Positions 5,619-42,181 of a stretch of 64,000 nt of DNA are shown here, in pieces (positions within the stretch are counted from its first letter, which is position 1; each line of letters starts with the position of its first letter). The notes beneath the pieces were generated by a model. It saw only the letters and a program-made list of their open reading frames with translations, was not told the DNA's origin and did not search any database. The position numbers and the translations under genes were made by a program. The stretch comes from a virus (taxonomy: Duplodnaviria; Heunggongvirae; Uroviricota; Caudoviricetes): positions 1 to 64,000 of the IMG/VR virus record IMGVR_UViG_3300033121_001335; one strand, written 5' to 3'.

Positions 5619-7178
5619 TTACCAGAACGGTATTTCTTCAATCAACACTGTACGAGACATATCTTCGATGAATACATCACACCTGTCATCCATAAATATG
5701 GTGTAAGCATCCATTTTGTTGGCGGCAGAGTGGCCCTGAGATGCCATAGCACCGAGGTGACTTCTACGACCATCAATATACCCCCATGTCATGTTAGGGC
5801 GGCCCTGTCTCCTCACCTCTCTGATGTTATTAACCAGCTGTCCATCGGAAGTTGGGCTTACATCAAATACGATGAAGATTGGAGTGGATTTTTTGTTTTG
5901 ACCAAACTCCAAATTAGTTTGAGGCAGGTCAAGCTCTGTCAGGTGAATCAGGCTTACAACACCAGTTTCACGGGTAACGAAGCTATCAAAAGCGTAGTCA
6001 AGACGTAAGTTTTGACCTTTTCCTGAAATGAATTTATCGTTATCGCCCACAGTGAAATTCAATCCTGAAGCCAAAGCATCAATTTTAACGGCTTGTTGGA
6101 AAGCATCAAAACCTGCTTCATTTGTATATAGTTTAACCTTGCGGTCTCCCATATTCACCCTACGATAGAACAGGTCTCCGAACACTGTACGCAATAGATT
6201 CACAGAGAATTCACCACGATTGTAAGGAACATAATTACCTGATTTTCTCATACGGTGTACGATACCAGCAGAGATTTTCTTCAGCTCTTGCTTAGAGCCA
6301 TTGGTACGACCAAAGCCCGGTTTAGCAAAGAACATACGATTCACTTTCAATTCCAACATCTCTTTACGCATGAGAAACTCAATAAATGGCTCCCATTTAA
6401 TGTCTGAACGAGATTGGATTTGACCATTACGCACATTAGCGTAATATATAATATCCATTGGGTTACCCCATATATCTTTCTTGCCGTTGGCGATACGCTT
6501 GTCATCAGCCCAACCTGTAATTGTGTGTTCTTTAGAATATCCAGAACCAAGAGTTTCGAACATTTCGAGTCTCTCAGCCAGTCTATCCAGACCCAATAAG
6601 TCTTGGTCAAATTCACCAATAGAGGCGTTAATCACTTCAACCTCTACACCCGGAACAAACCGAGAGCGGTCAACGCTATCCACTGTAGGATTAGCAGAAA
6701 CCAATGTGGCCCTATTCAACCAGCCTGAGTTATATGGAGTTGGGTCAGATGTTAAGAGGATTTGCTGACCATGAATCCTAGAACCCATACTAACGATGGC
6801 ATTCTTAGAGATTTTAGTATCAAACACCACCTCAAATTCTTTACCATCAATACCAATATTAGTTTGGTCAAGAGTGGATTGAGGAACATCTATAATCACC
6901 GGGAACATGTATGGTTTCTCAATCTCCCAACGCCATGTATCACTCATCCCATCCAAATAATAAGGAGTGGATTTGTCTAACATTTGCAGGAAGTCGTTTT
7001 TATACAATGATGTCTGGGTGTATAAAGATATGATTTTCTTATCATAATCCGAAGGAGTGTCCCTGTGGAAACTTTCTAAGTGATTACTATCAGTAAGTTT
7101 ACCGATAGCACGTTTATCCATTTGGGAAATTCTACCTGCGTATAAACCAGTAAATCCCGGTAAAAACTGTTGAGCCAT
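5619..7178 (-). CDS. major capsid protein candidate
   Basis: 519 aa. Call is by position only: immediately downstream of the acidic scaffold-like gene in the order terminase-portal-scaffold-capsid. Followed by a 167-nt hairpin-rich intergenic region. Confidence 0.5.
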   Translation of the reverse strand: MAQQFLPGFTGLYAGRISQMDKRAIGKLTDSNHLESFHRDTPSDYDKKIISLYTQTSLYKNDFLQMLDKSTPYYLDGMSDTWRWEIEKPYMFPVIIDVPQSTLDQTNIGIDGKEFEVVFDTKISKNAIVSMGSRIHGQQILLTSDPTPYNSGWLNRATLVSANPTVDSVDRSRFVPGVEVEVINASIGEFDQDLLGLDRLAERLEMFETLGSGYSKEHTITGWADDKRIANGKKDIWGNPMDIIYYANVRNGQIQSRSDIKWEPFIEFLMRKEMLELKVNRMFFAKPGFGRTNGSKQELKKISAGIVHRMRKSGNYVPYNRGEFSVNLLRTVFGDLFYRRVNMGDRKVKLYTNEAGFDAFQQAVKIDALASGLNFTVGDNDKFISGKGQNLRLDYAFDSFVTRETGVVSLIHLTELDLPQTNLEFGQNKKSTPIFIVFDVSPTSDGQLVNNIREVRRQGRPNMTWGYIDGRRSHLGAMASQGHSAANKMDAYTIFMDDRCDVFIEDMSRTVLIEEIPFW

Positions 7179-8556: not shown

Positions 8557-9105
8557 TTATAGCATTAAGTTAGATTTTTCCTTTTCATTAAAAAATTTAA
8601 ATGCTCTTGTTTTACATTTATCAGAGAAATCAAAGTCTTTTACAGTGACACCGAAATCTAAATATTTAGTGGCAAGGGCCCTCTTAATTGCATTCCTAGT
8701 CACCTTTTTCTTTATATCCTCCCAAGACACATCTTCTAAATGAGAAGATATTCTGGTTGACATACTATCCATCATATTAGATGGGGCATCATTATTATCT
8801 ACCAAAAATTTTTTCAGGTCATGTATTTCATACGTCACTACACCGGCGATGGAAATTGTTTCTCCATCTAATGTTGTGATTGTCAATGGTTTAGATTCCA
8901 TTGTCTCTTCTTTAACATTCCATGTTAATGGGTATTCTACAATTGGCCATTTAAGGTGGGTTCCGGCTTTTAGGGTGCGATGGTATACACCAAATCTTAA
9001 GACTATAGCCTCTGAGTAATGATTAACCACTACCCAAGGCTTAATGTAGTCTGATAATTGGTCTATAGTTTTTGTTATCCACTCTCCAAATCCCTCTAGT
9101 CCCAT
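8557..9105 (-). CDS. SPFH/band-7 (prohibitin-like) domain protein
   Basis: Pattern VVVNHYSEAIVLRFGVYHRTLKAGTHLKWPIVE..TITTLDGETISIAGVVTYEIHDLKKF resembles the SPFH core (E..V..RFG.....PG.H...P....V / T.D...V.V...V.Y.I.D). Confidence 0.5.
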   Translation of the reverse strand: MGLEGFGEWITKTIDQLSDYIKPWVVVNHYSEAIVLRFGVYHRTLKAGTHLKWPIVEYPLTWNVKEETMESKPLTITTLDGETISIAGVVTYEIHDLKKFLVDNNDAPSNMMDSMSTRISSHLEDVSWEDIKKKVTRNAIKRALATKYLDFGVTVKDFDFSDKCKTRAFKFFNEKEKSNLML

Positions 9106-9108
9106 TGT

Positions 9109-11703
9109 TTATTTCTTTGGTTTAGCCCTAGCCTTTTGTTTAGAGGCCTTTATTTTTTCTCTGTCAATTTTCATTTTCTCCATATTCTGCTCGAATTCCA
9201 CCTTTTTATTCTTTTGCTCGGCCTGAAACTGCATCATGTCCAGATTGAGCTTTTTGTTCTCTAGGTCTCTTTTGGCTATAGATTCCTGAAGCTTAAGCTG
9301 GTGTCCTGCTATTTCCATTATATCAGGGGTGCCATCTCCATCGGCATCTGTTGATGGTGCTTGGAAATATGTTGATATTTCTGCCTTAGCTAAGTCTGTA
9401 TTAGCCTTAACATCTGTCTTATATTTCTCCATCCTCAAATTGTCCTGATGGTGCCTTTCGTTTTGTTCTAATTGAGCCTGAGCTATTTCTTGCTCTCCTT
9501 GTGTCTTAGCCTGCTCATTTTCCTGCATTTGAGCCTGCATTTGGTCTTGCTTATTCTTAAGGTCTTTAAACACCTTCTGCATCTCACGGATGGAATTGGT
9601 AGCATAAAGAGCCGACACCTCGTATATACTAGCTCCATTTTGAAGCATAGCTTGGCTAAGCTGACGGAATTCGTTAAAGAGTTGTTGGTCTTCTGCTTTA
9701 GATGTTACAAACACCTTGAGGTCTTTTAGTTTTATATCCTCCCCTGTCACCTGAACGAATGCCGACTCCCCCTGAGAGGTTATAAAATTAACAGTGGAAA
9801 CTGGTTTCCTGCTTTCTATGTATTGGGAGCAATCAAGCATTGCTTGATATAGCTGGTTAAGGACGTATGAGTGGGCTGCAAAATATGGTTCTGTTTGAGC
9901 AAACGATTGAACCAAAGCATTCTGGTTAGCAGTGGCTGTTTCAGTGGCCAGTGGTGAACCAAGCCTTTGCCTATTCATACCTATAAGCTCCCAACATTCT
10001 TGTTTAAGCTGTACGGCCAATCTATACCGTGATTCTATTTCTGATGTTCTCGTAAGGTCTATATTCTTAGCTACAGTGGTGTTCTGTATAGACCCCTTTG
10101 TATTTTCAGGGGAATCGTCATCAAATATAATACCTCTCTTCCTTGCCTCTTCTTCCCATACGTCTATGGCATCGTTAGCATCTCCATCCTTCGGCCTTGG
10201 TATACGCCTAATGTTTACATTGGCAACATTACCAATCTCTTTTTCTAGAATTTCGAACAGCTGATTCATACAGATGTTGTATAATGTTTGGTAGGGTTTC
10301 ATCATATCCACCAAACTTTTAGGCTCTGTATTTTTCACTTCATGAATGAGACCTATAATAGGGGCATAGTCTAGGAGTGTGTATGGTTTAATGAAATAGA
10401 TGTCAGGGCCAATTTTAACTCCCTGATACCATTGATTAACCCAGCCCCATTCTATAGAAAGTTCTCCGGGAGACCCCTCTTTATATGATTCGTCTACGAG
10501 TGTGGTTTGTTCATCTCCTGCCTCATCTATATATGTAAGCTGACCCACCTTCTTTTTGGAATTCCAATAAGCTCTTATAACAACATATTTATATCCAAAG
10601 GAAAAGGCATTATTAGAACCAAGCCAATGATTGAGGTCATCTCTAAACTCATTGCCCAGCTCACTTTGTAAAATCATCCTTTCCTGATATATCAGCCTGT
10701 TATATGTATCATATTGAATTGTATTAATACCTGTTTTGTCCGTAAATAAGTTGGACTCTCTTCCATCCATGAATATAGAGTTTTGCATGGATTTCTGAAG
10801 ATGTTTAATTTCTTCTTCTGTGAGCTCTGGAAACTCTTCTATAATTTCGGATATTTCCTTAACATACACCGTACCTATTGCATAGGGTACGTTTGGTTCC
10901 CCCGAAGCACCTGATGTATATTTATTATCTGGTGTTCCTTTATGCCATACGTTTTTAGGGTTTTCTGTTTTGACATTAAATCCTAATTTGGAATTATCTT
11001 CATATATATGGTAGAACTCTCTGGAGCATATGAGAAGGTCTCTGAAAGCATCTTCTGATTTTTCCTTTGTATTAAACTGGGCTTTAAGAGCTGTGAGGAT
11101 ATGATTGCCCCACCTTTCAGCCAGCGATGTATAGTCTGTTAACAAGTCTTTAACATCTTCCATTACTAGTTGCTGCATGTCCTCATCGGAAATTTGAGAA
11201 GCATCCTCACCCTTCATAGCCATCTTATTTATAATAGTCTGTCTGGCTTGCTGGAGAATGAGTTGCTGAACTATTTCTGTCTTATATTGCAGTTCTTCGT
11301 TTCTGCTGTCGTCATCAAAAGCTTTCACCTTATGTATATCAGGTCTTTTAGAAAGCTCTCCCACCATTGTATTAACAGGTGGGTTTATAATTGGATAGTG
11401 CTTTACATATGATGGCAGGTCTTCTTTTTGTGTAAGAGTTTCTAAGAAGTCTTTAACCTCAGGGTCTGCATCCTGATAAAAGTCACTGGGTTTCAGTATT
11501 CCTTTCATCAAATCATAGTTCTTAACGAATGTCTCCTTATTTGCTTTATATTGCGTATACGCCATATTAGCAAAATAGTCAAGAGTGTTCTTGATGTAAG
11601 ATTCATTGGTAAGTTTCTCCTCCTCGCTTTTAAACGGGTCGGGGTAATTATTTAGATAGGAATATCCTAAATTAACATCACTATCACTTCTGGTAATTAT
11701 CAT
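9109..11703 (-). CDS. portal protein candidate
   Basis: 864 aa; overlaps the terminase stop (ATGA-type junction at 11700-11703); long Q/K/E-rich coiled-coil C-terminus; call is by position and size. Confidence 0.6.
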   Translation of the reverse strand: MIITRSDSDVNLGYSYLNNYPDPFKSEEEKLTNESYIKNTLDYFANMAYTQYKANKETFVKNYDLMKGILKPSDFYQDADPEVKDFLETLTQKEDLPSYVKHYPIINPPVNTMVGELSKRPDIHKVKAFDDDSRNEELQYKTEIVQQLILQQARQTIINKMAMKGEDASQISDEDMQQLVMEDVKDLLTDYTSLAERWGNHILTALKAQFNTKEKSEDAFRDLLICSREFYHIYEDNSKLGFNVKTENPKNVWHKGTPDNKYTSGASGEPNVPYAIGTVYVKEISEIIEEFPELTEEEIKHLQKSMQNSIFMDGRESNLFTDKTGINTIQYDTYNRLIYQERMILQSELGNEFRDDLNHWLGSNNAFSFGYKYVVIRAYWNSKKKVGQLTYIDEAGDEQTTLVDESYKEGSPGELSIEWGWVNQWYQGVKIGPDIYFIKPYTLLDYAPIIGLIHEVKNTEPKSLVDMMKPYQTLYNICMNQLFEILEKEIGNVANVNIRRIPRPKDGDANDAIDVWEEEARKRGIIFDDDSPENTKGSIQNTTVAKNIDLTRTSEIESRYRLAVQLKQECWELIGMNRQRLGSPLATETATANQNALVQSFAQTEPYFAAHSYVLNQLYQAMLDCSQYIESRKPVSTVNFITSQGESAFVQVTGEDIKLKDLKVFVTSKAEDQQLFNEFRQLSQAMLQNGASIYEVSALYATNSIREMQKVFKDLKNKQDQMQAQMQENEQAKTQGEQEIAQAQLEQNERHHQDNLRMEKYKTDVKANTDLAKAEISTYFQAPSTDADGDGTPDIMEIAGHQLKLQESIAKRDLENKKLNLDMMQFQAEQKNKKVEFEQNMEKMKIDREKIKASKQKARAKPKK

Positions 11704-13814
11704 CTGCTAAAGAGTTTTCTTTTCTTGCTTTTAAACATTTTTGATTCGAAGGTGAACAGTTTGTTCCCCTTTATTGGTTTCTTAAACAGAGACTGTATTC
11801 TTGGGTCAGCTTCTCCACCTATCTTACCTATAATTGGGTCTAGGTGATTGGATAGGGCTATTGCTAAGGAGAAGGCCACCTCTCTATCATAGTTGCCTTC
11901 TTCTTCATTAAAATTAATTATCTCCTCTAAAAGCATTGGGTCTGGTATGCGGGAAACCCCCAATGTTTCTTTTATTATAGAGCCTTGGTCGTCTCGTTCC
12001 TGCTTGATAACATCATCCAGATATTTCTTAGACCCGGCTCTTAGCATATCCCTGATTTTCTCAGAACTTCTATGTATACCCTTATCCCTTGTTACAGTGG
12101 TGTTTGGGACGTACAGCTTTAACCACTGAGGCTGGTCTTCTAAATAATGCCCATCGCCCTTACTAATCATATAATTAATGAAGGTCATGTCATCATTTTC
12201 ACAAAGTGTTCTGGCATTATACCATTTGATTAACATCCGGGCTTGCTCGTTCCATTTCTCAGGACTGTCAGGCCTTGACGCATAGGCCGCCACTATCATA
12301 TCCTGATATTTTTCAGAATGTATATCATGCATTCGCTTGAATATATACACAACGCCTAAAGAATCAGAATACTCTGCTTTTCCTTGCCTATAGTTATCCA
12401 CCCCCGCTACATATAGGCCAAATGGTGGGAGGTCATCAATGGGAAATTCCCACACCTGTATTGGAGCATCCTTATTTTGGGTCTTTACTGGAAACTCTGT
12501 AATAGGTAGTTTGTTTGAAGGCTTGTGGGTAATCCCCTCACCATTGTGGTATAATTCTACTAGTGAGCCCGTCACCCCATGAGCTCTTAATCTTTGTTGT
12601 TGAAACTTAGCCGCCTCAATATTATAGTCATTCTTTGTTAAAACTAAGAAGCTATCGGAGGCCTTTAAAGGCCAATAGGCTTTAAATTTCAGAACAGTTT
12701 TACTATTTCCTGATTTAAGGGCCTTCGCATATTCTGGTTTCCACCACTCTTCCAGAGCTCTCTCCTCATCACTAACAAGAATAGTTATATTATCAAAATC
12801 TGGATGTGGTTCTAATTTTCTCCCCAATTTTTCAGTGAGATAGCGATAGAGAGTCCAAGGCTGCTTATATTTCATTCTTGCTCTTAAGGCAGATATGAAT
12901 CTGCCCATCTTTCCGCCCGGAACCTCTGGATTATCAAAAGCTAAACTATTGTAAGAGAGTGGATTAAAGAACATTTCTCCTGCTTCTTTTCCCACTTCCA
13001 TATCCCCACCAGTTCCTGTTAGCATAACCAAGCACGATGGTTTATCCCCGCCGCCTGACCACCAACATCCATCTGAGTCTTTTACACATCCGATGAGGTT
13101 GGGTAATGTACCCTCTTCATCAATTACATGAAAACCGGGACGTGTACCATTGGCTGCCATTGTTTTATTACCATTCTCGTAATTCCTCACCTTTATAGAG
13201 GATTTAGAGGAAGCTGGGTCTGGCAGTCCTGTAGCCTTATCCTTCCACCCTGCTACGATTTCTTTTTTCCAATCTGAGGTGATGCGCTGTTTTCTAAACA
13301 TGGGATGTATGTTTAGAAGCCCATCCTCGATTTTATCTGTTACAAGCTTTATGTAGTTATAAGCCCCAGCAGATATTACAGCCTCACTTTGGTCATAGAA
13401 TGTGTATAAATGTCCAGCACATGAGCCGGCTATCACACTCTTACCAAAATCACGAGAGCCCACTAGGTTATATATCAATATACCCTCGTCTGTGCATTTT
13501 TCTAAATCGTCTACGAATATATCCCAATCTAAATCACGGAATAATGGAGTGATGATTTGACGAGATTTAACTGTCTTTCCTTTCACTTCCCTTTCTATAT
13601 ATGCTGCAATTTTCCAATATACAGTGTGAAAATATAGTCTTCCGGGAATTTTGAGCTGGCCATTTCCTATATAGAACCCATTCATACATCTGTCTTTCTC
13701 TCGTCTCCAATAATCACGAAAAACCTGCATAGCTTCCTCATCCTGAGGGTCGTATACGGGTTCACTCTGATTTGGAAACCAGATGTTAACGGTATTTAAT
13801 TGGTATTCTGGCAT
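11700..13814 (-). CDS. terL: terminase large subunit
   Basis: Walker A-like VGSRDFGKS, Walker B-like FHVIDEEG, C-terminal nuclease-like YVAGVDNYRQG; 704 aa. Confidence 0.75.
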   Translation of the reverse strand: MPEYQLNTVNIWFPNQSEPVYDPQDEEAMQVFRDYWRREKDRCMNGFYIGNGQLKIPGRLYFHTVYWKIAAYIEREVKGKTVKSRQIITPLFRDLDWDIFVDDLEKCTDEGILIYNLVGSRDFGKSVIAGSCAGHLYTFYDQSEAVISAGAYNYIKLVTDKIEDGLLNIHPMFRKQRITSDWKKEIVAGWKDKATGLPDPASSKSSIKVRNYENGNKTMAANGTRPGFHVIDEEGTLPNLIGCVKDSDGCWWSGGGDKPSCLVMLTGTGGDMEVGKEAGEMFFNPLSYNSLAFDNPEVPGGKMGRFISALRARMKYKQPWTLYRYLTEKLGRKLEPHPDFDNITILVSDEERALEEWWKPEYAKALKSGNSKTVLKFKAYWPLKASDSFLVLTKNDYNIEAAKFQQQRLRAHGVTGSLVELYHNGEGITHKPSNKLPITEFPVKTQNKDAPIQVWEFPIDDLPPFGLYVAGVDNYRQGKAEYSDSLGVVYIFKRMHDIHSEKYQDMIVAAYASRPDSPEKWNEQARMLIKWYNARTLCENDDMTFINYMISKGDGHYLEDQPQWLKLYVPNTTVTRDKGIHRSSEKIRDMLRAGSKKYLDDVIKQERDDQGSIIKETLGVSRIPDPMLLEEIINFNEEEGNYDREVAFSLAIALSNHLDPIIGKIGGEADPRIQSLFKKPIKGNKLFTFESKMFKSKKRKLFSR

Positions 13815-19170: not shown

Positions 19171-19419
19171 ATATAAATAAGGGGAATATTATGAATGGAA
19201 TGGTTGTAATAGCCTAGTATTACAATATTCTCCTTATTCTATATATAGGGTGGGTAATAAGTGTATACGAAGGGTGGGAAATACCAAAAACGAGGACATT
19301 ATTTATTAATCAATTGATTATCAGAATGTTATGTGTCATACATTAACATTGCTGTGGGCATTCGATTGCCAATACATCACTAACTAAAACAAGCTGGGAA
19401 GCTTTATATCCATTAATTT

Positions 19420-19692
19420 ATGGCAAAGAGTCCTGTATTTGTATCATTAGACCTGTCCACAACAACTAATTCTGGTGATAAAGCTGTTGTTGACAAAAGA
19501 TTATTAACCTCTTTCTTTAAAAAGTTTGAGCCATCCAATTTGGAAGAGCTTAAAACCAGTTTAAAAACACTGATTGATAACAGCCAAACTATGGAGGAAA
19601 TGGCGGAAGTGGTGGATGAACACCTGTACATCACCCAAATAGCCACCAAATATCATGGAATCACTCAGTCTGAAGCTTTAGCTGGTGTCTAA
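19420..19692 (+). CDS. hypothetical protein
   Basis: ORF track; isolated gene in the control region. Confidence 0.5.
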   Translation: MAKSPVFVSLDLSTTTNSGDKAVVDKRLLTSFFKKFEPSNLEELKTSLKTLIDNSQTMEEMAEVVDEHLYITQIATKYHGITQSEALAGV

Positions 19693-19977
19693 TTCACATT
19701 AAATATGTTTTGGTTATGTCCAATACACGCTGCAATAGGTGGTGAGGACATAATTAAATGCATTGTTGTGACAATTGTGGCTATAAAATAGACAAATTTT
19801 GTCTTCAGCCTTGCTGGTGGCTTAATACAGAGGAATTATATGTACAATATATAGGGGATTTGGGCATCAGATGTGCTATTATTGCTGGCAGCATTGGTGT
19901 TCATTTCCCTATATATTAGTATGTAGTGTTTTCCCTATGGCAAAAAGTGACTAAATGGGCTATTTTTATCATAACTC

Positions 19978-19990
19978 ATTGATTATCAAT
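19978..19990. promoter_or_regulatory. operator-like palindrome ATTGATTATCAAT (copy 1)
   Basis: Perfect inverted repeat ATTGAT-T-ATCAAT. Confidence 0.45.
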
Positions 19991-20095
19991 AAACATTTAA
20001 CGATGATTATTGGTAAATAACGATATTTTTATGATAAAATGGGTGATTTGGGGGGTGTGGACACATCCTTGGAACTTTGGTTTATAACGTAAACT

Positions 20096-20108
20096 ATTGA
20101 TAATCAAT
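20096..20108. promoter_or_regulatory. operator-like palindrome ATTGATAATCAAT (copy 2, flanked by GTAAACT)
   Basis: acgtaaactattgataatcaatatt; 21-nt near-identity with copy 3. Confidence 0.45.
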
Positions 20109-20833
20109 ATTTGGGGCAAGCTATAATGGCATTAAAACTTAATAACTATGAGCAAAATAGTTAGGTCTTATATGGTATTAATACGCCATTTTATTGCTCT
20201 TCTGAGCCATTAAGCATAAGGTGAACAACAATGCACATTTGGGGAATGTATAAATCCAGCCAAGCTATAATAGATGCAAGTATCCTTAACATTAAATCGG
20301 AGGAGAAAACTGGACGACTATTATAGAGAATACGTCTTGGGACAAACGGTAACCATTATAAGTCCTTTTTACTTATAACACAATCTGCAAACCAAATAAG
20401 CACATAATCCAGTTGTTTGCTTATTTTAAGGGGTTGTGTTCAGGATATTGAACTAAAAGCACCAAATGGAAGGATTGCCTACACTTGTTCTGCTTTTGTT
20501 AATAAAAAGTAATTACGAAACATTCCAGTTTTGGGTGTATTAGACGAAGGTGAGATTATATTCACTATTACTTTTAAAATACACTGCATTGTATTTATTT
20601 TCATTTACCACTTATTATTATGATGCAAACTATTGTTTTTTAATTGTTCAAAAAGAACAAAAATAAGTTCTGGGTCATCACTATGTCATGACATATGTGA
20701 GAAAACCTCAATAACTGGGTTTTGTATGCCATTTGAAAAAATAAATGGTAGACTTTCCCTAATATTGTAAGAGGTGATAATGGTCGTATTGGTACAGGCA
20801 TGTAAGAATATACGACACACTATTATGTAAACT

Positions 20834-20846
20834 ATTGATTATCAAT
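20834..20846. promoter_or_regulatory. operator-like palindrome ATTGATTATCAAT (copy 3, flanked by GTAAACT)
   Basis: atgtaaactattgattatcaataag. Confidence 0.45.
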
Positions 20847-21016
20847 AAGTACATTTAGTGTCTGGTTCCCAGTAAGGATTTTAATAAGCTGTAAATCAAT
20901 TAGTTATTTCTATAACTTTGAGATAATTCAGTAATAAGTCCTCTTCCAGAGAGTGGAAAAGAAATCAAGACTCTCCTAAGGTTGTGAGTAGGCTGGTGTT
21001 ACCTGCAACTCTCCTT

Positions 21017-21055
21017 AAAGAATACAGAATTATGCAGAGTTCTGTATTCTTTATT
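21017..21055 (+). terminator. intrinsic terminator / 13-bp hairpin
   Basis: AAAGAATACAGAA (21017-29) / TTCTGTATTCTTT (21040-52), then TATT. Confidence 0.55.
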
Positions 21056-21058
21056 GTT

Positions 21059-21107
21059 ACCAAAGACAAACTGGTTGTTTAATATGGTTCGATTCCATAC
21101 TTTTGGT
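21059..21107 (+). other. tRNA-like minihelix (acceptor stem + T-arm only)
   Basis: T-arm TATGG-TTCGATT-CCATA (21083-21099). 3' strand CTTTTGGT pairs with ACCAAAG (21059-65). No D arm and no proper anticodon arm. Confidence 0.3.
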
Positions 21108-21290
21108 CTAAATTGTATTATTATGAGAAATTATACATTTCATTGGCAGTATAAATATCAAATAACTGTTTATAATGCCAATAATGATTCTAAAAGGACA
21201 CATTCATCTGATAATATTAAGGATATTATTGATATATATCTTGATAAGAAAAGTGAAGGTGTATATTTTAGATTTTTGAAAAATAAATAA
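21084..21290 (+). CDS. hypothetical small protein
   Basis: ORF track 21054..21290 trimmed to its first ATG (MVRFHTFGL...). Confidence 0.35.
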   Translation: MVRFHTFGLNCIIMRNYTFHWQYKYQITVYNANNDSKRTHSSDNIKDIIDIYLDKKSEGVYFRFLKNK

Positions 21291-21297
21291 AATCACC

Positions 21298-21477
21298 ATG
21301 TGGAAGAAAATATATTTTATAGACTATGATAAAGTCAAAAAATATATTTGGGTTTATACATACAAACAATTTAAACACCTCTGGATTAGCCTTTTACGAA
21401 CTAAAGGTGAGATGTTTATAAAAATCTCCAGTCCTGAGTGTGGACACCAATTATTATGGAAAGACTCTATCCAATAG
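21298..21477 (+). CDS. hypothetical 59-aa protein
   Basis: Manual translation MWKKIYFIDYDKVKKYIWVYTYKQFKHLWISLLRTKGEMFIKISSPECGHQLLWKDSIQ*. Confidence 0.35.
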   Translation: MWKKIYFIDYDKVKKYIWVYTYKQFKHLWISLLRTKGEMFIKISSPECGHQLLWKDSIQ

Positions 21478-21683
21478 AAGACACTAAATATTCAGCTGAT
21501 TTCTCTTCTATGAGTCCGTTTATATATAAAGACTTTCCCTTTGGAAGATTAGTTTTTAAATGTAAAGAGGCGGGGGCTGTAATCATAGTTACTGATAACA
21601 ATTCTGTTATGGCTGCAAGATTTTCCAGAGATAATATGAGGCATGGAGTAAAATATGCATTTAGACCAAAATTTACTAATTAA
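21456..21683 (+). CDS. hypothetical protein
   Basis: ORF track 21438..21683 trimmed to ATG (MERLYPIEDTKY...). Confidence 0.45.
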   Translation: MERLYPIEDTKYSADFSSMSPFIYKDFPFGRLVFKCKEAGAVIIVTDNNSVMAARFSRDNMRHGVKYAFRPKFTN

Positions 21684-21684
21684 T

Positions 21685-21768
21685 ATAATTCTCTTCCTTA
21701 ATAATAAGCACAGCTTTATTGTATATAGTATTTGTATATTTTAAAGTTTTATTAGGGAAGAGAATTAT
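21685..21768 (+). other. 20-bp-stem hairpin
   Basis: ATAATTCTCTTCCTTAATAA (21685-21704) / TTATTAGGGAAGAGAATTAT (21749-21768). The single U.G pair is valid only on the plus-strand RNA. Confidence 0.55.
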
Positions 21769-21780
21769 AATTGTTGCAAT

Positions 21781-22872
21781 AAAGAGTGAGAGAAGGGAAA
21801 CATATGAGAGCTTGACTCATCCTTTCGAAGAGCATCACTCTTTAAAATTGCACTAAAAGCTACGAAAAACCTGTAAGGTTTCTAGAGAAATAAGATGAAA
21901 ACAAATTCACCTTATTGGTTATAAGTGGCTAATTGATTATTAATAAAAAATTTCTTAATAGTGGAAGTATGAATAAGTGCTAACATAGATTAGCAGCTTG
22001 CACTATTAATAGAATGGTAACAACTATTTCTTCTGCACAACTCATGTAGATATACTTCTTAGGACTTGAGATACAAAAGACAGCCTTGCTTGATAGAAAG
22101 GTGTAGGGAATATGTATCGTTGGATAGACTATCATCGAATCCCTAACTAAGATGTGAAACTACCTGATTAATAGGGTCTATGGATGTGTTCATAGTTTAC
22201 GAAGTGCGAACCATTAATCAGCTCCCAAGGGTGAGACAGTTGTAATAGGACAAGTCGTAGTACCTGTAAGTGTGTTAAACCTACCACTATTACAACTGAG
22301 TGCAGAAGAAACCTCTTTAAGAACTCTCTGGCTCTTGTGCATACATAAAAGTTACCGCTTTAGCGTTGATAGCCTAACAGCTATTTACAGATGGCTGGTG
22401 TATGTGGAGAGAGTAGAATAGCTGATACCGAACTACCTATCTGGTGAAGGTTTGAAAGCTTTGACTTCTACTGGCTGTAACCCAAGAGAGTTCTTATTTT
22501 AAAAATATTAAAGCTTAAAGCTGTCTTCGGCACTCAGAAGACCCACAGCAATAAGCTTTAACTTCTTTATGACAAAATAGGGTAGTGGTAAGATAAAAGT
22601 AAAGATATTGAACCAAGGAGTATTCCAACTGTCAATTATGACCATGTTTGTGCACTAAGCAGAAAGCCAGTATACATGACGAGAGCTTCCTTAGGGGCAT
22701 CTTTTAAACTTACTGCTGCTCTATTTTTAACAGCAATATTTATTACATATAAAATAAAATAGCTCATTGTGATATGTTGGATTGAGCAATCTGACATAAG
22801 ATATAAGGATAACCTAAGAGAAGGGGGACACAGCAGGCTTATTGCTTGGTACTTATATCACCCGAAAGGGTT
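21781..22872 (+). ncRNA. candidate large structured non-coding RNA (~1.1 kb, ORF-free)
   Basis: Nested long-range helices: 21781-89/21835-43; 22027-38/22300-11 (12 bp); 22164-72/22213-21; 22237-48/22287-98 (12 bp); 22319-28/22486-95 (10-11 bp); 22508-23/22546-61; 22800-07/22852-59; a GAAA tetraloop hairpin at 22860-71. No ORF of 60 aa or more on either strand. Confidence 0.4.
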
Positions 22873-23027: not shown

Positions 23028-23750
23028 ATGTTTAAAAGAGCAAAAGTGGTTATGTTACCCACTAATCAAAAAGCACCTGAAGGTACATTATATCTTCAAC
23101 ACAACCAGCTTAGAATATCCCAAGGAGGTATTACTAATGCAATTAATCAAAACAAAAATAATAAAAGTGTAAATCATCAACATCTTTATATTTTATCAGA
23201 TGAAGAAATAAAAGCTGGATATTTAGCAATGAATATGTACAATAATACAAATACCATATTCAAGATAACTAAAGTTTTAGCAGATGGTTACGAAGGTCAA
23301 AAACTTAATGAGCCCAATATATTTTATGGTTTATCTAAAACTCTTAAAAAAATTATTGCTACAACTGATAGTTCTTTAAAAGTTTTTATTGATAAAGCAT
23401 ATATGAATTTTGGAGAAACAGAGTGTTTACCTCAACCATCTCAATCATTCATTGAAAAATATGTTGAGAAGTATAATAAAGGTGAACAGATTACTGATAT
23501 ATTAGTTGAATACGAATTTGATGTAAGTAGAAAACCATTTGCTATTGGTAGTAATCCTGAACATTATAATCTTAAAGTAAATCTTAAAGACAACACTATT
23601 ACAATTAAGCCTGTAAAAGAGAATTGGAACAGAAGTGAAGTGCTTCATTTTCTTGGCGAAGCTTTCAGATTGGGCAAACAGGTTCAAAGGAGTCCTGATT
23701 ATTATTCTTTATGTGACCCATTAGCTGATTTAGCTAAAAAATTATTATAA
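23028..23750 (+). CDS. hypothetical protein
   Basis: ORF track; 240 aa; no motif recognised. Confidence 0.65.
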   Translation: MFKRAKVVMLPTNQKAPEGTLYLQHNQLRISQGGITNAINQNKNNKSVNHQHLYILSDEEIKAGYLAMNMYNNTNTIFKITKVLADGYEGQKLNEPNIFYGLSKTLKKIIATTDSSLKVFIDKAYMNFGETECLPQPSQSFIEKYVEKYNKGEQITDILVEYEFDVSRKPFAIGSNPEHYNLKVNLKDNTITIKPVKENWNRSEVLHFLGEAFRLGKQVQRSPDYYSLCDPLADLAKKLL

Positions 23751-26215: not shown

Positions 26216-27046
26216 ATGAATATTTCTGAACACACGGGTAATTTCATTCAGGAAATGAAACGTAGAAATTATAGCCAAAACACTATTGATAACTATTCTT
26301 CCTGCATTAAATATTTTTTCGCCCAATCAGCCAAAGACCATCCAAAAAATATTAACGAACAGGATATAAAAGATTTTTTAGGCAAGTTCACAGAGGTAAA
26401 TACTCAACGCAACTACCATAGTGCAATAAAGAAATTCTACGATGTTTGTTTAGGACAAAAGGAAAAGTTCAAATATATTCCTTACGCACAAAAGAATAGC
26501 AAACTGCCAATAGTTTTATCTGTTGAAGAAATACAAAAAATGTTCTCTGTTTGCGAAAACACTAAGCACAAAGTTATACTTGCCTTACTATACTCATGCG
26601 GATTGAGGGTATCGGAATTAATAAATTTGAAGTGGGCTGATATTGACCGAAGCAGAATGATTATAAATATCATTCAGGCAAAGGGCAAAAAAGATAGACA
26701 GGTTATGCTTACGCCTCAATTAATCCCGTTACTGGAAAAGTATTACAAAGAATATAAAAGTAAAACGTATGTGCTGAATGGATGGAAGAACGAATTGCAA
26801 TATTCAGATAGAAGTGTAGGCGAAGTGGTTAAGCAATTAGCAACTAAAGCAGGTATCAGCAAAAGAGTTTATACTCATTTACTTCGTCATTGCAGCTTTA
26901 CTCACATGGTAGAAAATGGAACGGACATAAATTTAATACAGAAATTAGCAGGACATAGTAATGTTAAAACGACATCTATCTATACCCATATTTCACATAA
27001 CTTGATTTCAAAGATACACTCCCCTTTAGCAAATATTAATCTTTAA
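26216..27046 (+). CDS. int: tyrosine recombinase / integrase (XerC/D-like)
   Basis: Catalytic pattern: GLRVSELINL (Arg), HLLRHCSFTHM (H-x-x-R), AGHSNVKTTSIYTH (His..Tyr). N-terminal SAM-like domain NTIDNYSSCIKYF. Confidence 0.9.
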   Translation: MNISEHTGNFIQEMKRRNYSQNTIDNYSSCIKYFFAQSAKDHPKNINEQDIKDFLGKFTEVNTQRNYHSAIKKFYDVCLGQKEKFKYIPYAQKNSKLPIVLSVEEIQKMFSVCENTKHKVILALLYSCGLRVSELINLKWADIDRSRMIINIIQAKGKKDRQVMLTPQLIPLLEKYYKEYKSKTYVLNGWKNELQYSDRSVGEVVKQLATKAGISKRVYTHLLRHCSFTHMVENGTDINLIQKLAGHSNVKTTSIYTHISHNLISKIHSPLANINL

Positions 27047-27723: not shown

Positions 27724-27903
27724 ATGACAATATTAACATTTCCCGTAGAAATGCAAGAAGATGTGTATAAAGTAACAGGGCAGCCAGCTCCGGATGAAGT
27801 TATTGATGTCACAGTAAAATTTAAAGAAACACTTTCCGATGAAGTGTTAGGATTATTAAAAGCTTTAGGTGTTCAAATCAGATTTATGACACCTGTAAAA
27901 TAA
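27724..27903 (+). CDS. hypothetical 59-aa protein
   Basis: Manual translation MTILTFPVEMQEDVYKVTGQPAPDEVIDVTVKFKETLSDEVLGLLKALGVQIRFMTPVK*. Confidence 0.4.
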   Translation: MTILTFPVEMQEDVYKVTGQPAPDEVIDVTVKFKETLSDEVLGLLKALGVQIRFMTPVK

Positions 27904-27910
27904 ATGAATG

Positions 27911-28166
27911 GTTGTTTGACACTTATTTGACTATATGTAAGACACGGGTTCGACTCCCGTCTGCTCCACCGGATTAATATTGACCATTTATAGGCCGGGT
28001 AATTCCGGTGGGGCAGCTTGGCTTTGATTGCATATCAGTGGATAGGAATAGACTATTCAGTGTAATAAACGGCAAGAGAATTGCTATTGGTAGAACTGCA
28101 ATGAGAATTGCGGCCTAACAACGTATTGCCCCCCTGTATTTATACAGCGAAAAGGGGGCTTTTTTA
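27911..28166 (+). ncRNA. circularly permuted tmRNA-like element (acceptor piece, 39-nt linker, coding piece, terminator); 27941-27970 is alternatively an attP core
   Basis: T-arm ACGGG-TTCGACT-CCCGT (27944-60). 3' acceptor CTGCTCC-A-CC (27961-70). 5' strand GGGGCAG (28010-16) is its exact complement with a G3:U pair. CUUGGCUUUGA D-loop analogue. P2-like UUGCAUAU (28028-35)/AUAUGUAA (27933-40). Tag-like frame 28071-28118 GKRIAIGRTAMRIAA*. Terminator 28128-66. Confidence 0.45.
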
Positions 28167-28185
28167 ATTATTTAAACTAAATTTT

Positions 28186-33718: not shown

Positions 33719-33824
33719 TGACACCACACCATAAAAGAAAAATACATCCCATAGAACTGGTTGTTTCTATTATAGAGTTTGTGGGATTTTTATATTTATA
33801 TTGCTTATTAAAAACTATTTAAAA

Positions 33825-34670
33825 ATGGAAAAAACTAATTATTTAGAAACGAAATATCAGGGGATTATTCCCTATCAAATAGAAGAAGGAAAAAAACATA
33901 TTACGTTAGCCCCCGGTGTATATCAACTTGGCTATTATGAAATTGCTCCTATGTGTATTGTTGACCACTTTATGCCATTAAAAGAGCAAGACAGTCTTAT
34001 AAGATTTAAAGATAGTGTTGTTGACGATGTAGTGAATAAGGTGGATAAATTCTTTTCTCAGAATAGTGTAGATGCCTATAAAGAATTAAAATTAGTGCAT
34101 AAAATGGGCATGATTATACATGGTCCTCATGGAACAGGTAAAACAAGTTCTGCTATGTTAGCCCTAAGAGCTATAGCTAAAAAATATGATGCTATATGTC
34201 TTGATTGTACGCCCAGAACTTTAAATAACTGTATAAACACTATAAAAAATATCAGACAGCACCAAAAAAATCCCATTATAATGTTTATGGATGAATTTGA
34301 GGTGGAAATGAGAGAAAGAGAGGAGCAGTGGCTGCCATTTTTAGATGGGACAGGAAGTTTTGAGAATTTTGTTTTTATAGCTTGCACCAATTATATAGAC
34401 AAAATTCCTGATAGGATAAAAGATAGAAAATCCAGAATTAAACACATTGTGGAAATTAAGGGACTGCCAATGGCTGTATATTCTGAATATATTAAAGACA
34501 GACTTCCAAATTTAAAATCTGAAGAGTTAGCCGAATTTGCTTTTAAAGCTGAAAATGAAAAATTGACTATTGACCAAGTGAAAAATGCTCTTATAGATTA
34601 CAGAATTGAGGGCTGGTCTATAGACAAGGCTATAAAGGTGGCAGCTTCTATAAAGGACGAATCTATTTAA
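33825..34670 (+). CDS. AAA+ family ATPase
   Basis: Walker A IIHGPHGTGKTS and Walker B IIMFMDEFE. Start moved from TTG at 33801 to ATG at 33825. Confidence 0.8.
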   Translation: MEKTNYLETKYQGIIPYQIEEGKKHITLAPGVYQLGYYEIAPMCIVDHFMPLKEQDSLIRFKDSVVDDVVNKVDKFFSQNSVDAYKELKLVHKMGMIIHGPHGTGKTSSAMLALRAIAKKYDAICLDCTPRTLNNCINTIKNIRQHQKNPIIMFMDEFEVEMREREEQWLPFLDGTGSFENFVFIACTNYIDKIPDRIKDRKSRIKHIVEIKGLPMAVYSEYIKDRLPNLKSEELAEFAFKAENEKLTIDQVKNALIDYRIEGWSIDKAIKVAASIKDESI

Positions 34671-40239: not shown

Positions 40240-40247
40240 TAAATTTG
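40240..40247 (+). promoter_or_regulatory. -7 promoter box TAAATTTG, 5 nt upstream of the polymerase ATG
   Basis: Matches TAnnTTTG; spacing implies a leaderless or near-leaderless mRNA. Confidence 0.45.
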
Positions 40248-40252
40248 TGCCT

Positions 40253-42181
40253 ATGTTAGAAAATAATGTATATATATTTGATATTGAAGGTGATGGTTTG
40301 CTTTCTACTATTACGAAAATTCATTGCGTTTGTGCATATAACATAAAAACCAGAGAAGCTGTACAATTGACTAATTATCAAGAAATTGAACAATTTTTTT
40401 CTGACGAAAAAGCCACTTTTATAGGACATAATATTATACGTTTTGACATTCCGGCATTAAAAAAGATAATAAAGGTAGAAATAAGGGGTGATGTAATTGA
40501 TACACTAGCAATATCGTGGGTGTTAGAAGAAAACAGAAAAAATCATGGATTGGGGAGCTACGGAGAGGAGTTTAATATAAAAAAACCAGAAATAAAAGAT
40601 TGGAACAGCCTTACAGTAGAGGAATACATTCATAGGTGCTCCGAAGATGTAAAAATAAACACCACTTTATGGAACAGGCAAATAAAATATTTAAAACAAG
40701 TTTATTATCAAGATGATAAGAATTTATATAGGTGGTTTAAATATCTGAGATTTAAACTAGAGTGTGTGTATGAACAAGAAACTGAGGGGCTGAGATTAGA
40801 TGTTAATAAAGCTAAAAAGCACTTTAATGAGCTCTCTATTCTTAAAGAGGAAAAAATCAAAGAATTAGAAGCTGCTATGCCTAGAGTAGCCATTAAAAAA
40901 AAGAGGGTGTATAAAGATGCTGTAAAAGATAGTAATGGTAATGTTTTTGAAAAGGGTGACCTGTTTTATAATTCTCAACCTATTAGCAGGAAAAAAGAAG
41001 AAATAATAGAAGAAAAAATCATAGGTTGGAAAGAGCCTAATGCTAATAGTCATGTTCAGATAAAGAATTGGTTATACAATTTAGGTTGGATACCACAAAA
41101 TATACAGCATAAAAGAAATAAAAAAACTGGTGAGATAAAACTTATTCCTCAAATAAAAAGCCAATTTGAAATAGGAGAAATATGTGATAGTGTTAAATTA
41201 CTATTTAAAAAAGAACCAAAATTAGAGGCTTTAGGAGGATTGTCGGTGCTTACCCATCGTATTAGTATATTTGAAGGATTCATATCCGATGAGGAAAATG
41301 GACGCATATATCCCTCTATGAATGGTTTAACTAACACCCTGCGTCTTAAACATAGGGTAATTGTCAATCTACCTAGGGCTGGGAGGGCGTATGGGGAGGA
41401 CATTAGGGGGTGTTTAATAGCTGATGAAGGATGCATTTTATGTGGAAGTGATTTAAGCGGTATAGAGGATAGCACTAAAAGACATTTTATATATGATTAT
41501 GACCCTGAATATGTAAAAAGTATGGACACTCCGGGGTATGACCCCCATTTAGAGCTCGCTGTATTGGCAAAATTTATGACCAAAGAGGATGCTGATTGGT
41601 ATAAGGAAGAATCCAAAAAACGTAAAGATGAAGCCTATAAAGCCTCTACAGAAGACAATCAGAGGTTTACAGCTTTAACAGCTAAAAGGTATGTGGCTAA
41701 AACTACTAACTTTGCAGCAACATATAAAGTAGGAGCTAAGGCCTTAAGTGTATATCCCGGTATTAATTTAGGAATGAAGGAAGCAAAGAGGGTAATAGAT
41801 ACATATTGGAAAAGAAATAAGGCTATTTTGGACGTAGAAAATAGTTTAAATGTCAAAGAGGTATATGGGCAAAAATGGCTTTTTAATCCTGTTAGTAGAT
41901 TTTGGTATACATTAAGGGCTGATAAAGATAGATTTAGTACATTAAATCAGAGTACGGCTGTATTTGTATTTGATAAGTGGCTTACAGAAATTAAAAAAGC
42001 TGGTGTTAAAATACCATTCCAATACCATGATGAAATAGGATTTAATGTTAAAAAAGAGAAAAAAAGAGAAAATACAGCGATTATTAAACAAGCCATACAA
42101 ACTGTTAACGACAAATTAAAACTAAATATAACAATAGGATGCAGTGTTGATTATGGTAAAAAATATAGTGATATACATTAA
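40253..42181 (+). CDS. family-A DNA polymerase with 3'-5' exonuclease domain
   Basis: Exo I IFDIEGDGL, Exo II GHNIIRFDIPAL, motif B RYVAKTTNFAATYKVG, motif C YHDEIGF. Start moved from GTG at 40247 to ATG at 40253. Confidence 0.9.
   Translation: MLENNVYIFDIEGDGLLSTITKIHCVCAYNIKTREAVQLTNYQEIEQFFSDEKATFIGHNIIRFDIPALKKIIKVEIRGDVIDTLAISWVLEENRKNHGLGSYGEEFNIKKPEIKDWNSLTVEEYIHRCSEDVKINTTLWNRQIKYLKQVYYQDDKNLYRWFKYLRFKLECVYEQETEGLRLDVNKAKKHFNELSILKEEKIKELEAAMPRVAIKKKRVYKDAVKDSNGNVFEKGDLFYNSQPISRKKEEIIEEKIIGWKEPNANSHVQIKNWLYNLGWIPQNIQHKRNKKTGEIKLIPQIKSQFEIGEICDSVKLLFKKEPKLEALGGLSVLTHRISIFEGFISDEENGRIYPSMNGLTNTLRLKHRVIVNLPRAGRAYGEDIRGCLIADEGCILCGSDLSGIEDSTKRHFIYDYDPEYVKSMDTPGYDPHLELAVLAKFMTKEDADWYKEESKKRKDEAYKASTEDNQRFTALTAKRYVAKTTNFAATYKVGAKALSVYPGINLGMKEAKRVIDTYWKRNKAILDVENSLNVKEVYGQKWLFNPVSRFWYTLRADKDRFSTLNQSTAVFVFDKWLTEIKKAGVKIPFQYHDEIGFNVKKEKKRENTAIIKQAIQTVNDKLKLNITIGCSVDYGKKYSDIH

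Follow-up and report, generated by a model that had tools for sequence, protein, structure and literature searches.

The stretch of DNA analyzed here (the window) comprises positions 1 to 64,000 of the IMG/VR virus record IMGVR_UViG_3300033121_001335, a tailed-phage genome with crAss-type structural genes, and carries on its plus strand, at 27905-28165, a locus with the parts of a transfer-messenger RNA (tmRNA, ssrA) gene in circularly permuted order. It begins with the 5′ strand of the long, interrupted helix P2 (27905-27940), where the acceptor piece would also begin, and this strand pairs with 28028-28059 in the minimum free energy (MFE) fold as well as in the cofold of the two predicted pieces. 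A GAC connector and the T-arm follow (27941-27960); the T-arm can be read in the sequence as ACGGG-TTCGACT-CCCGT (27944-27960), with a stem formed by 27944-27948 and 27956-27960 and the loop UUCGACU. Then come the 3′ acceptor strand CUGCUCC (27961-27967), a discriminator A (27968) and CC (27969-27970), which together occupy 27961-27970 and have their partner at 28010-28016. After an intervening sequence of 39 nt (27971-28009), which is predicted to be removed in maturation, the coding piece starts with the 5′ acceptor strand GGGGCAG (28010-28016) and a D-loop analogue, CUUGGCUUUGA, both placed by alignment to the Rfam family RF04321 (28010-28027 in all). The P2 3′ strand (28028-28059) was placed by the MFE fold, by duplex energies and by the cofold, and its first part, UUGCAUAU (28028-28035), is complementary to AUAUGUAA (27933-27940). 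The context of the resume codon, ..GUAAUAAAC (28060-28070), is single-stranded, has A at positions -4 and -3, and includes a match to the resume consensus of ARAGORN. It leads into the tag frame GGC..GCC TAA (28071-28118), an open reading frame (ORF) of 15 codons that ARAGORN likewise reads as GKRIAIGRTAMRIAA*. Within the last tag codons, the MFE fold forms a P5-like hairpin, GCAAU-GAGA-AUUGC (28098-28111), and the coding piece ends in an intrinsic terminator (28128-28165) with an outer stem GCCCCC / GGGGGC, an inner hairpin CUGUA / UACAG and U6. This terminator was missed by a simple consensus scan because of its long composite loop.

An earlier note on this DNA, made from the letters alone, had proposed a permuted, two-piece tmRNA, and its coordinates for the T-arm, acceptor strands, spacer, P2 strands, tag frame, hairpin and terminator all proved correct. 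The tRNA-like domain has a 7-bp acceptor stem with the G3·U pair (U27963·G28012), the discriminator A, and a 5-bp T-arm with a loop of the UUCGANU type, and P2 joins it to the mRNA-like domain. The gene order is the permuted one, in which the 3′ tRNA-like half, the intervening sequence, the 5′ tRNA-like half and the tag follow one another. The tag ORF has no start codon, is preceded by a resume context, and closes with a stop codon after an end of the Ala-Ala type. On these grounds, together with the computed folds and comparisons presented below, we estimate at roughly four in five the probability that 27905-28165 encodes what is predicted to be a functional circularly permuted ssrA gene. The likeness to tmRNA is in any case far beyond chance.

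The note had further suggested an ARAGORN run, a scan with the Rfam models and a cofold of the two pieces as checks. ARAGORN made a single call in the 64 kb, a permuted tmRNA (tmRNA*) with the tag GKRIAIGRTAMRIAA*, which is exactly the tag that had been read by eye. In the Rfam scan, RF04321 (tmRNA_permuted), the merged model for permuted tmRNAs, was the sole family to reach its gathering threshold in the window, with 53.7 bits over model positions 1-213 of 213 and E = 1.1e-7 for the whole window; the curated gathering score of this family is 47 bits. The unconstrained MFE fold of 27905-28172 has -84.1 kcal/mol (z = -3.3 against dinucleotide shuffles) and yields the T-arm, a 13-bp acceptor helix, the interrupted P2, the P5-like hairpin and the terminator. 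When the two pieces are cofolded, 36 intermolecular pairs form, 29 of them belonging to P2 between 27905-27940 and 28028-28059, while ACCA-3′ and the resume region stay unpaired; by computation, the predicted acceptor and coding pieces are thus able to associate. The extra length of the acceptor helix is contributed by the ends of the spacer, such that 27961-27973 pair with 28004-28016, and a repeat search found a 13-nt inverted repeat, CTGCTCCACCGGA / TCCGGTGGGGCAG, spanning this region. The acceptor helix runs on through the intervening sequence in the same manner in one related locus (L009), and the motif GCCGGGUAAYUCCGGUGGGG in the intervening sequence is common to the window and this locus only. 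A scan of metagenomes for the architecture specific to these two returned zero matches, although a JGI contig (L049) has it; the scanned collection evidently does not contain this contig.

The tag deserves some comment. The peptide is basic, ends in Ala-Ala, and has the N-terminal G-[KR]-x-I and C-terminal [MLVQ]-[RK]-x-A-[AV] that are common to the tags of the homologue group described below. An exact 9-nt direct repeat, GAGAATTGC, occurs in frame at 28076-28084 and 28103-28111, 27 nt apart, so that R-I-A is encoded twice, which suggests that the tag may have grown by internal duplication. AUUGC occurs three times in the tag region, offering alternative partners for GCAAU. Another frame, ARELLLVELQ* with a resume codon GCA at 28073, was considered and is disfavored, since it has neither an Ala-Ala end nor the C-terminal motif of the group, and since a natural substitution in related strains, A28094G, would be non-synonymous in it.

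Two degenerate-pattern scans of IMG/VR yielded 38 loci with the permuted signature, which fall into two classes by covariance-model score. Members of the first class reach 107-136 bits with RF04321 and, with one exception (L063), also match the models of the alpha or beta lineage. The second class consists of about 20 loci and the window gene, with 50-68 bits for RF04321 and no match to a lineage model. In its layout, a P2 5′ strand of about 40-45 nt leads via ..GAC into the T-arm, which is followed by the acceptor 3′ strand; an intervening sequence, about 35-54 nt long, separates these from the coding side, where GGGGNNG-NNUGGUUUUGA, the P2 3′ strand (about 40 nt) and the resume context [UC]AA[AC][CU]|G follow one another. 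The tags have 10-17 codons, most of them with the end [LVMQ]-[RK]-x-A-[AV], and there is a small hairpin with an AGA-type loop in the last tag codons, after which comes either a tRNA or a terminal hairpin that often has a U-run. The window gene has all of these defining features. We refer to the class as the Bacteroidota-phage minimal permuted tmRNA group; the grouping was defined in the present analysis, and we found no published name for it. Its tag family includes GKVVQMYNPSLRAVA, GKLISLNNAPLRAVA, VKVINLFTPQLRAVA, GKVIQMFAQPVRLAA, DNVINLNNATLRMAV, GKQINVNFAASRKLAA and GRTIAFTPRYSVSIAA, in addition to GKRIAIGRTAMRIAA of the window.

Within this group, GGGG..G..UGG.UUUGA is invariant, and both GAC and the G3·U pair are found in 17/17 homologues. 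In the same 17, there are compensatory changes at three T-stem pairs, and five T-arm or acceptor pairs have changed on both sides. For the group, a nhmmer profile and pair counting were used in place of a group covariance model. The profile gave 93.5 bits for the window, which is part of the alignment, and 94.9 bits for a strain variant (L048) outside it. The pair counting covered 15 named pairs in an alignment of 17 distinct sequences and showed strong covariation of the tRNA-like domain. Paired cells amounted to 98.8%, compared to 84% in shuffles and about 50% when the partners were slid; seven pairs had changed on both sides, as against 3.9 in shuffles; and the covariation score of 0.414 (0.117 in shuffles) was reached by none of 500 shuffles. 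As P2 cannot be brought into register by MAFFT, it was tested by duplex energy instead: cognate strands had a mean of -14.7 kcal/mol and non-cognate ones -11.4 kcal/mol, with 0 of 20,000 permutations as extreme, and the cognate duplex of the window (-21.3 kcal/mol) ranked first of 18 when set against non-cognate 3′ strands. The first P2 pairs are A-U in the window and G-C in the group, a compensated change. The resume context N-[UC]-A-A-[AC]-[CU]|G is kept in 15 homologues, and inspection by eye of 15 folded homologues found a P5-like hairpin with an AGA-containing loop in most of them, though on different stems (GCAAU/AUUGC, CCAG/CUGG, UGCUC/GAGCA and AUCGC/GCGGU across the group). A hairpin with a U-run stands at the position of the terminator in several. 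The window departs from the group at UGGCUUUGAU, where its strain variants have UGGUUUUGAU.

These strain variants were found by looking up exact copies of the protein encoded by the 86-aa ORF upstream, which led to four further contigs with the same gene order from four samples (SRR30163052, JGI 3300020049, SRR12486993 and SRR32380191). The tmRNA is present in all four, and ten positions in or beside the gene vary among the strains. They comprise a substitution in the leader (27908), one in an internal loop of P2 (27921), U27927C, which turns a U·G pair of P2 into C-G, one at position 7 of the T-loop (27955), two in the loop of the intervening sequence (27976 and 27978), C28022U in the D-loop analogue, which shifts it toward the group consensus GGUUUUGA, U28066C at position -5 of the resume context, which is inside the variation of the group, A28094G, the lone in-frame substitution in the tag and a synonymous one (AGA to AGG), and one in the terminator loop (28143). 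In a diverged block of the mosaic, the coding piece differs by 2.5%, the adjacent orf50 by 9% and the next spacer by 12%; the low divergence of the coding piece is consistent with constraint, judged from few events. In the contig from SRR32380191 (L051), all nine differences from the window over 2.35 kb are transitions that lie within about 117 nt (27862-27978). This cluster, which reaches from the end of orf59 through the acceptor piece into the spacer, may reflect recombination of a small patch or local mutation. The earlier reading as a permuted two-piece tmRNA is hence backed from several sides, namely by ARAGORN, RF04321, folds in cis and in trans, conservation among strains, and covariation.

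Several observations weigh against this reading. The RF04321 score lies just 6.7 bits over the gathering score, and the alpha (RF01849), beta (RF01850) and cyano (RF01851) models, which the note had named, all stayed below gathering on the window. In a scan at E <= 10, the best clan match kept over the region was a truncated match to RF00023 (25.5 bits), while other phage contigs, used as positive controls, score 58-145 bits on the alpha or beta models. ARAGORN prints 'Tag not identified' for the gene, the tag being unusual. There is no space for the pseudoknots PK1 and PK2-4, with 11 nt from P2 to the resume codon and 9 nt from the stop codon to the stem of the terminator; in the window gene, the bases that form the PK1 hairpin in the RF04321 consensus are unpaired, and neither inspection by eye nor the MFE folds allowed a pseudoknot to be placed, no dedicated pseudoknot predictor being part of this search. 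The CCA end is incomplete: the gene encodes ACC with G as the next base, so that, as a refinement of the earlier note, the terminal A of CCA is absent from it (most group members encode only A-C of the 3′ CCA). A consensus scan detected no convincing promoter, and sites of this kind are no commoner in the region than in shuffles; the weak sigma-70-like match TTCAAA, 18 nt, TAAAAT (27872-27901, plus strand, 9/12 matches), which lies inside the end of orf59, is only a candidate and is not evidence of function. Finally, the strain variants are nearly identical, so that any selection must be judged from a handful of substitutions on a mosaic background.

Some of these points could be taken to mean that the gene is a decaying relic, captured as a tmRNA from a bacterium or another phage and no longer functional, as the low covariance-model score, the lack of room for pseudoknots and the incomplete CCA would suggest. 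Close relatives that carry the integrase lack the gene, and in three of the five strain variants ARAGORN makes no call. The missed calls, however, all go back to U28066C, which alone abolishes the call and is a -5 change inside the normal variation of the group. All defining helices are intact, natural variants keep or improve the pairing, and the minimal layout recurs with covariation in about 20 divergent phage contigs. We therefore give very little credence to decay, and regard a functional permuted tmRNA as the better account of the locus.

A second alternative arises from the tyrosine recombinase (276 aa, Phage_integrase 2e-36; 26216-27046, plus strand) that is encoded 0.9 kb upstream of the tmRNA. 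The earlier note had raised the possibility that the 3′ fragment serves as an attachment site, and in its strict form this would mean that the fragment at about 27930-27970 is merely the attP core for integration into a host ssrA or tRNA-Ala gene and that the likeness to tmRNA is incidental. The 3′ ends of tmRNA and tRNA genes are indeed common attB sites (PMC11915505), and the exact 27-mer covering the T-arm and acceptor strand was found at the 3′ ends of five tRNA-Ala genes and one tmRNA gene in metagenome-assembled genomes of unrelated bacteria. These matches, from a set of species-representative genomes, fall into Sumerlaeota, Omnitrophota and Lentisphaerae (tRNA-Ala) and a Lachnospiraceae member (tmRNA), none of which is a plausible host, and there was no Bacteroidota or cyanobacterial match in the same set. 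Furthermore, 30 viral contigs from IMG/VR (L010-L039) encode integrases that are 56-85% identical to that of the window, yet no tmRNA was found in these loci by ARAGORN (30 loci), Rfam (15) or the nhmmer group profile (30), and no further ORF near the integrase is common to them and the window. In one strain contig (L050), the integrase allele has been replaced, with 73% nucleotide identity in flanks that are 100% identical, and no matching change has occurred in the tmRNA, which is 98.5% identical. The largest contigs on which proteins of the window were found belong to the 50-200 kb class; none is chromosome-sized. An attachment core would need the 3′ fragment alone, whereas the 5′ strand, the D-loop analogue, the P2 partner, the resume context, the tag and the terminator are all present and covary. 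The idea that the locus is attP and nothing else is thus rejected on the available comparisons as highly improbable, and an additional role as attP is not supported, nothing having been found in its favor. The nearby recombinase is unrelated to the tmRNA gene and appears to behave like an exchangeable cassette (26216-27046 in the window, 219-1052 in L050). It has the size of XerC/D, and its domain list also shows MrpR_C_cat.

How would such a gene work? The following steps are proposed by analogy with the two-piece tmRNA of Caulobacter and with tRNA processing, as they are treated in a review (PMC3985003). A single precursor would be transcribed, either by read-through from the small ORFs upstream or from a promoter within orf59. 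RNase P would cut 5′ of G28010, and a 3′ tRNA-processing activity would trim after A27968 or C27970; since only ACC is encoded, the host CCA-adding enzyme is proposed to complete the CCA, a step after transcription that would be required and is plausible. Two pieces would result, one of about 66 nt with the acceptor end ..CUCCACCA and one of about 157 nt that carries the coding part and starts with GGGGCAG, and they would be joined by the 7-bp acceptor stem and the roughly 29 bp of the interrupted P2. The host alanyl-tRNA synthetase (AlaRS) would charge the RNA via G3·U, and host SmpB and EF-Tu would bring it to ribosomes stalled on broken mRNAs, where translation would resume at GGC 28071 and end at UAA 28116, such that the ribosome is freed and Ala-GKRIAIGRTAMRIAA is appended to the nascent product. 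One may speculate that the phage benefits by keeping ribosomes free during infection while mRNA is being degraded, and that the basic, non-canonical tag with its Ala-Ala end alters the fate of the tagged products.

The phage might also use the RNA for interference, that is, to compete with the one-piece tmRNA of the host for SmpB, AlaRS or ribosomes, be it as a decoy or by replacing the degradation tag of the host with one that the phage specifies and that meets another fate. There is precedent for this, because a molecule of the DS6A type, which consists of the tRNA-like domain only, inhibits the host tmRNA in E. coli (PMC11915505; PMC4131195). Moreover, Bacteroidota hosts own a one-piece tmRNA, and the group tags (G-K-x-I ... 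R-x-A-A/V) are unlike the canonical end ..YALAA, and ARAGORN does not recognize the tag of the window. No match to SmpB (PF01668) was found among the 41 window ORFs that were scanned against Pfam, which included 30 of SmpB size and a 289-aa AAA+ ATPase, so that any tmRNA activity would have to rest on the SmpB of the host. Yet a pure decoy needs no resume context, open tag frame, stop codon or P5 hairpin, all of which the group keeps, and Ala-Ala is still found at the end of the tag; tag swapping, for its part, would be a variant of trans-translation and not an alternative to it. We thus consider interference unlikely, though better placed than either decay or an attachment site, and favor a tmRNA that takes part in trans-translation.

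With respect to the host, the earlier note had taken a Bacteroidota phage for granted. This is now made probable, though not proven, by the crAss-type genes, the signals for translation initiation and the Flavobacteriia-like affinities of relatives. A Shine-Dalgarno-like motif precedes just 8 of 107 window ORFs; instead, A is strongly enriched at -13 to -10 and at -3, with AAACTAAATTT(T)ATG at many of the starts. Initiation that is rich in A and poor in Shine-Dalgarno motifs is the style of Bacteroidota. For four group contigs, the best matches of the largest proteins are all in phages of Flavobacteriia, namely F. columnare FCV phages (72.6% for the tail sheath, 51.5% for a helicase), Nonlabens phage P12024 (43%, portal), and the phages Cellulophaga phi10:1 and Flavobacterium 11b (43% and 40%, portal). 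The group contigs are not of a single phage type: a tail sheath is encoded on one, and several have distinct portal and terminase families. TerL and portal genes of one contig (L060) are crAss-like, and a different contig (L066) has a protein in common with the window.

The window phage itself encodes a Crass_capsid major capsid protein (5619-7178), the portal (9109-11703) and the large terminase, TerL (11700-13814), all on the minus strand, and a family A DNA polymerase on the plus strand (40247-42181). Other genes encode an Amidase_3 endolysin (1589-2140), an SPFH/Band 7 protein (8557-9105), a ThiF-family protein (55788-56516), an NT5C nucleotidase (60858-61367) and RecA (62323-63387); the SPFH/Band 7 gene adjoins that of the portal, and Cellulophaga phage phi4:1 has such a gene as well. 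The best deposited match of TerL is to a cyanophage, Leptolyngbya phage Lbo-JY46 (33% identity), and it is about 25-28% identical to TerL of Crassvirales, Cellulophaga and Flavobacterium phages, such that the window phage is only distantly related to deposited phages. A search for relatives via the neighboring proteins encoded at 23028-23750 and 33801-34670 found none in viral contigs. The palindrome ATTGATnATCAAT occurs at about 19313, 19978, 20095, 20830 and 21932 in an ORF-poor, AT-rich region (19296-21954) adjoining the strand switch at about 18.7 kb, which also contains a 21-nt inverted repeat (21684-21704 / 21749-21769); these elements are candidate operator or origin sites.

The earlier note was not aware of a permuted tmRNA in a Bacteroidota phage, but such genes had already been annotated. 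A blastn search with a group member matched features labeled 'transfer-messenger RNA, SsrA' in the RefSeq Crassvirales phages cr10_1 (NC_055875, 26352-26737) and cr125_1 (NC_055900, 87913-88362), both from human faeces, and in the cultured Chryseobacterium phage MA9V-3 (PV245944, 22766-23124), and novelty for Bacteroidota phages therefore cannot be claimed. A further copy, in Crassvirales phage cr53_1 (NC_055889), is unannotated and missed by ARAGORN and scores 50.3 bits with RF04321. ARAGORN calls the other three permuted, with the tags GNNFVTDYTQLAVA (cr10_1), GNFYVTDYTRIAA (cr125_1) and GNVIDINKYVAKLEVAA (MA9V-3); RF04321 gives 49.6 bits for cr10_1 and 64.7 bits for MA9V-3, while cr125_1 stays under gathering. 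All four share with the window the order of parts, ..GGAC with the T-arm, and GGGGNNG..UGG.UU.GA. As in the window, a hairpin follows the tag, translation would resume at a Gly codon in cr10_1 and MA9V-3, and MA9V-3 further has the resume context AAUAAAC|GG and a terminator directly after the tag. They differ from it in the length of the intervening sequence (60 nt in MA9V-3, 99 nt in cr10_1 and, by eye, about 190 nt in cr125_1, versus 39 nt), the tags of cr10_1, cr125_1 and MA9V-3 are unlike GKRIAIGRTAMRIAA, and none of the four genes has detectable DNA similarity to the window gene beyond the tRNA-like core. The phages, too, are distant, with TerL at about 25-28% identity, and the first 50 kb of MA9V-3 has only RecA in common with the window, at 37% identity. 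Compared with deposited phages at large, the 2.5-kb region or the tmRNA alone gave DNA matches just to a 30-60-nt T-arm/acceptor segment of standard phage tmRNAs.

Some features beside these genes are worth recording. RAGATH-9 RNAs adjoin or lie near the permuted tmRNA in cr125_1 (L089 1291-1459, 154 bits), where the end of the match overlaps the start of the annotated tmRNA feature, and in cr10_1 (L088 139-317, 97 bits); the window has no RAGATH-9. The intervening sequence of cr10_1 (L088, about 1540-1640) holds a T-arm-like segment, GAGGTTCGACTCCTC, and linkers of permuted tmRNAs may thus host extra tRNA-like modules. In MA9V-3, a protein of 279 aa labeled 'ClpX' (L092 26938-27777) is encoded 3.8 kb from the tmRNA. 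It is a partial AAA_2 or ClpX-like ATPase that scores 65 bits against a ClpX cutoff of 359 bits, and no equivalent was found in the window. A link to ClpX suggested by this label was rejected, since the AAA+ ATPase of the window (33801-34670) is generic and only the P-loop is common to the two.

The permuted tmRNA listed for Cellulophaga phage phi4:1 (Table S1 of the Melnitz study, PMC9004378) is an artifact: the 662-nt call (L082 39919-40580; 89919-90580 of the record) extends over three tRNA genes, consists of tRNA-like fragments with an implausible tag, and has no RF04321 match at E <= 1. No tmRNA was found in Leptolyngbya phage Lbo-JY46, the nearest cultured phage by TerL, by ARAGORN, a relaxed signature scan or nhmmer, in F. 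columnare phage FCV-3 by these three methods and Rfam, or in Nonlabens phage P12024S by Rfam, the relaxed signature scan and nhmmer. Lbo-JY46 has a large tRNA array, with 17 ARAGORN calls in the 30-kb stretch examined. Taking the false positive in phi4:1 together with the false negatives caused by U28066C, ARAGORN errs both ways on permuted phage tmRNAs. Such genes are easily overlooked, as one base change can hide the call and the copy in cr53_1 had gone unannotated.

With these results, the annotation of 27905-28165 as a genuine two-piece tmRNA gene is settled. Phages that resemble those of Bacteroidota, crAss-like ones included, carry a compact permuted tmRNA though their hosts use the one-piece form (in 29,415 Bacteroidota genomes, 24,380 standard tmRNAs stand against 48 permuted ones; PMC11915505, Table S2). 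At about 220 nt, a tmRNA that encodes a tag but offers no space for pseudoknots would make a handy minimal model for trans-translation, and the conserved, non-canonical tags raise the question whether phages re-route tagged proteins. It is tempting to go further and view the window gene, its roughly 20 relatives and the genes of cr10_1, cr53_1, cr125_1 and MA9V-3 as a distinct phage lineage that does not derive from the alpha, beta or cyanobacterial forms, a proposal that we consider possible while leaning against it. Such a lineage would apparently be marked by a tag-encoding RNA of which only the tRNA-like domain, P2, the tag, P5 and a terminal hairpin are left, by its own tag family (G-K-x-I ... 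[LV]-R-x-A-A/V), and by its spread over unrelated Bacteroidota phages whose hosts have one-piece tmRNAs, with systematic under-detection by ARAGORN. Were this true, it would amount to a fourth origin of permuted tmRNA and to a natural minimal tmRNA, possibly a phage device for re-tagging stalled host or phage products that goes beyond plain rescue.

How does the window gene compare to the known two-piece systems? With RF04321 and the alpha, beta and cyanobacterial lineages it shares the permuted gene, the (here predicted) two-piece RNA, the tRNA-like domain with G3·U, P2 and the tag ORF. Two-piece coding pieces typically keep PK1 and PK2 (PMC3985003), for which the window gene has no room, though pseudoknots vary among tmRNAs, some of which lack PK1, and mitochondrial forms have none at all. 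The tmRNA of Caulobacter is bacterial, chromosomal and of the alpha type with pseudoknots, in contrast to that of the window, and its tag is canonical (..AVAA). For Caulobacter crescentus, the processing of a permuted precursor into acceptor and coding pieces that function in trans-translation has been validated experimentally (Keiler, Shapiro and Williams 2000, as cited in PMC3985003). Among phages, permuted ssrA genes like that of the window are found in the OM43 phage Melnitz, pelagimyophages, Caulobacter phages (CcrSC etc.), and the cyanophages S-CBWM1 and S-CAM3. In a survey by ARAGORN, two-piece forms made up 53 of the 133 unique structures of phage tmRNAs, mostly from marine or aquatic phages; no phage SmpB is reported for the aquatic two-piece tmRNAs, which are presumed to serve the upkeep of translation during infection (PMC9004378). 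Most of these aquatic carriers infect host lineages with two-piece tmRNAs, whereas the window group is found on contigs that resemble phages of Bacteroidota, which have one-piece tmRNAs. Melnitz has a glutamine riboswitch, while the Rfam scan detected no riboswitch in the window. The tRNA-like-domain-only tmRNA of mycobacteriophage DS6A and the two-piece tmRNA of jakobid mitochondria are reduced and free of pseudoknots, as is the window gene, but they have no tag frame, whereas the window gene has a resume context, an ORF and a stop codon. The literature that we searched contained no discussion of tmRNAs in crAss-like phages, so that genes of this kind are present in public annotation yet little described, and the window gene joins this existing kind rather than representing a new type of element.

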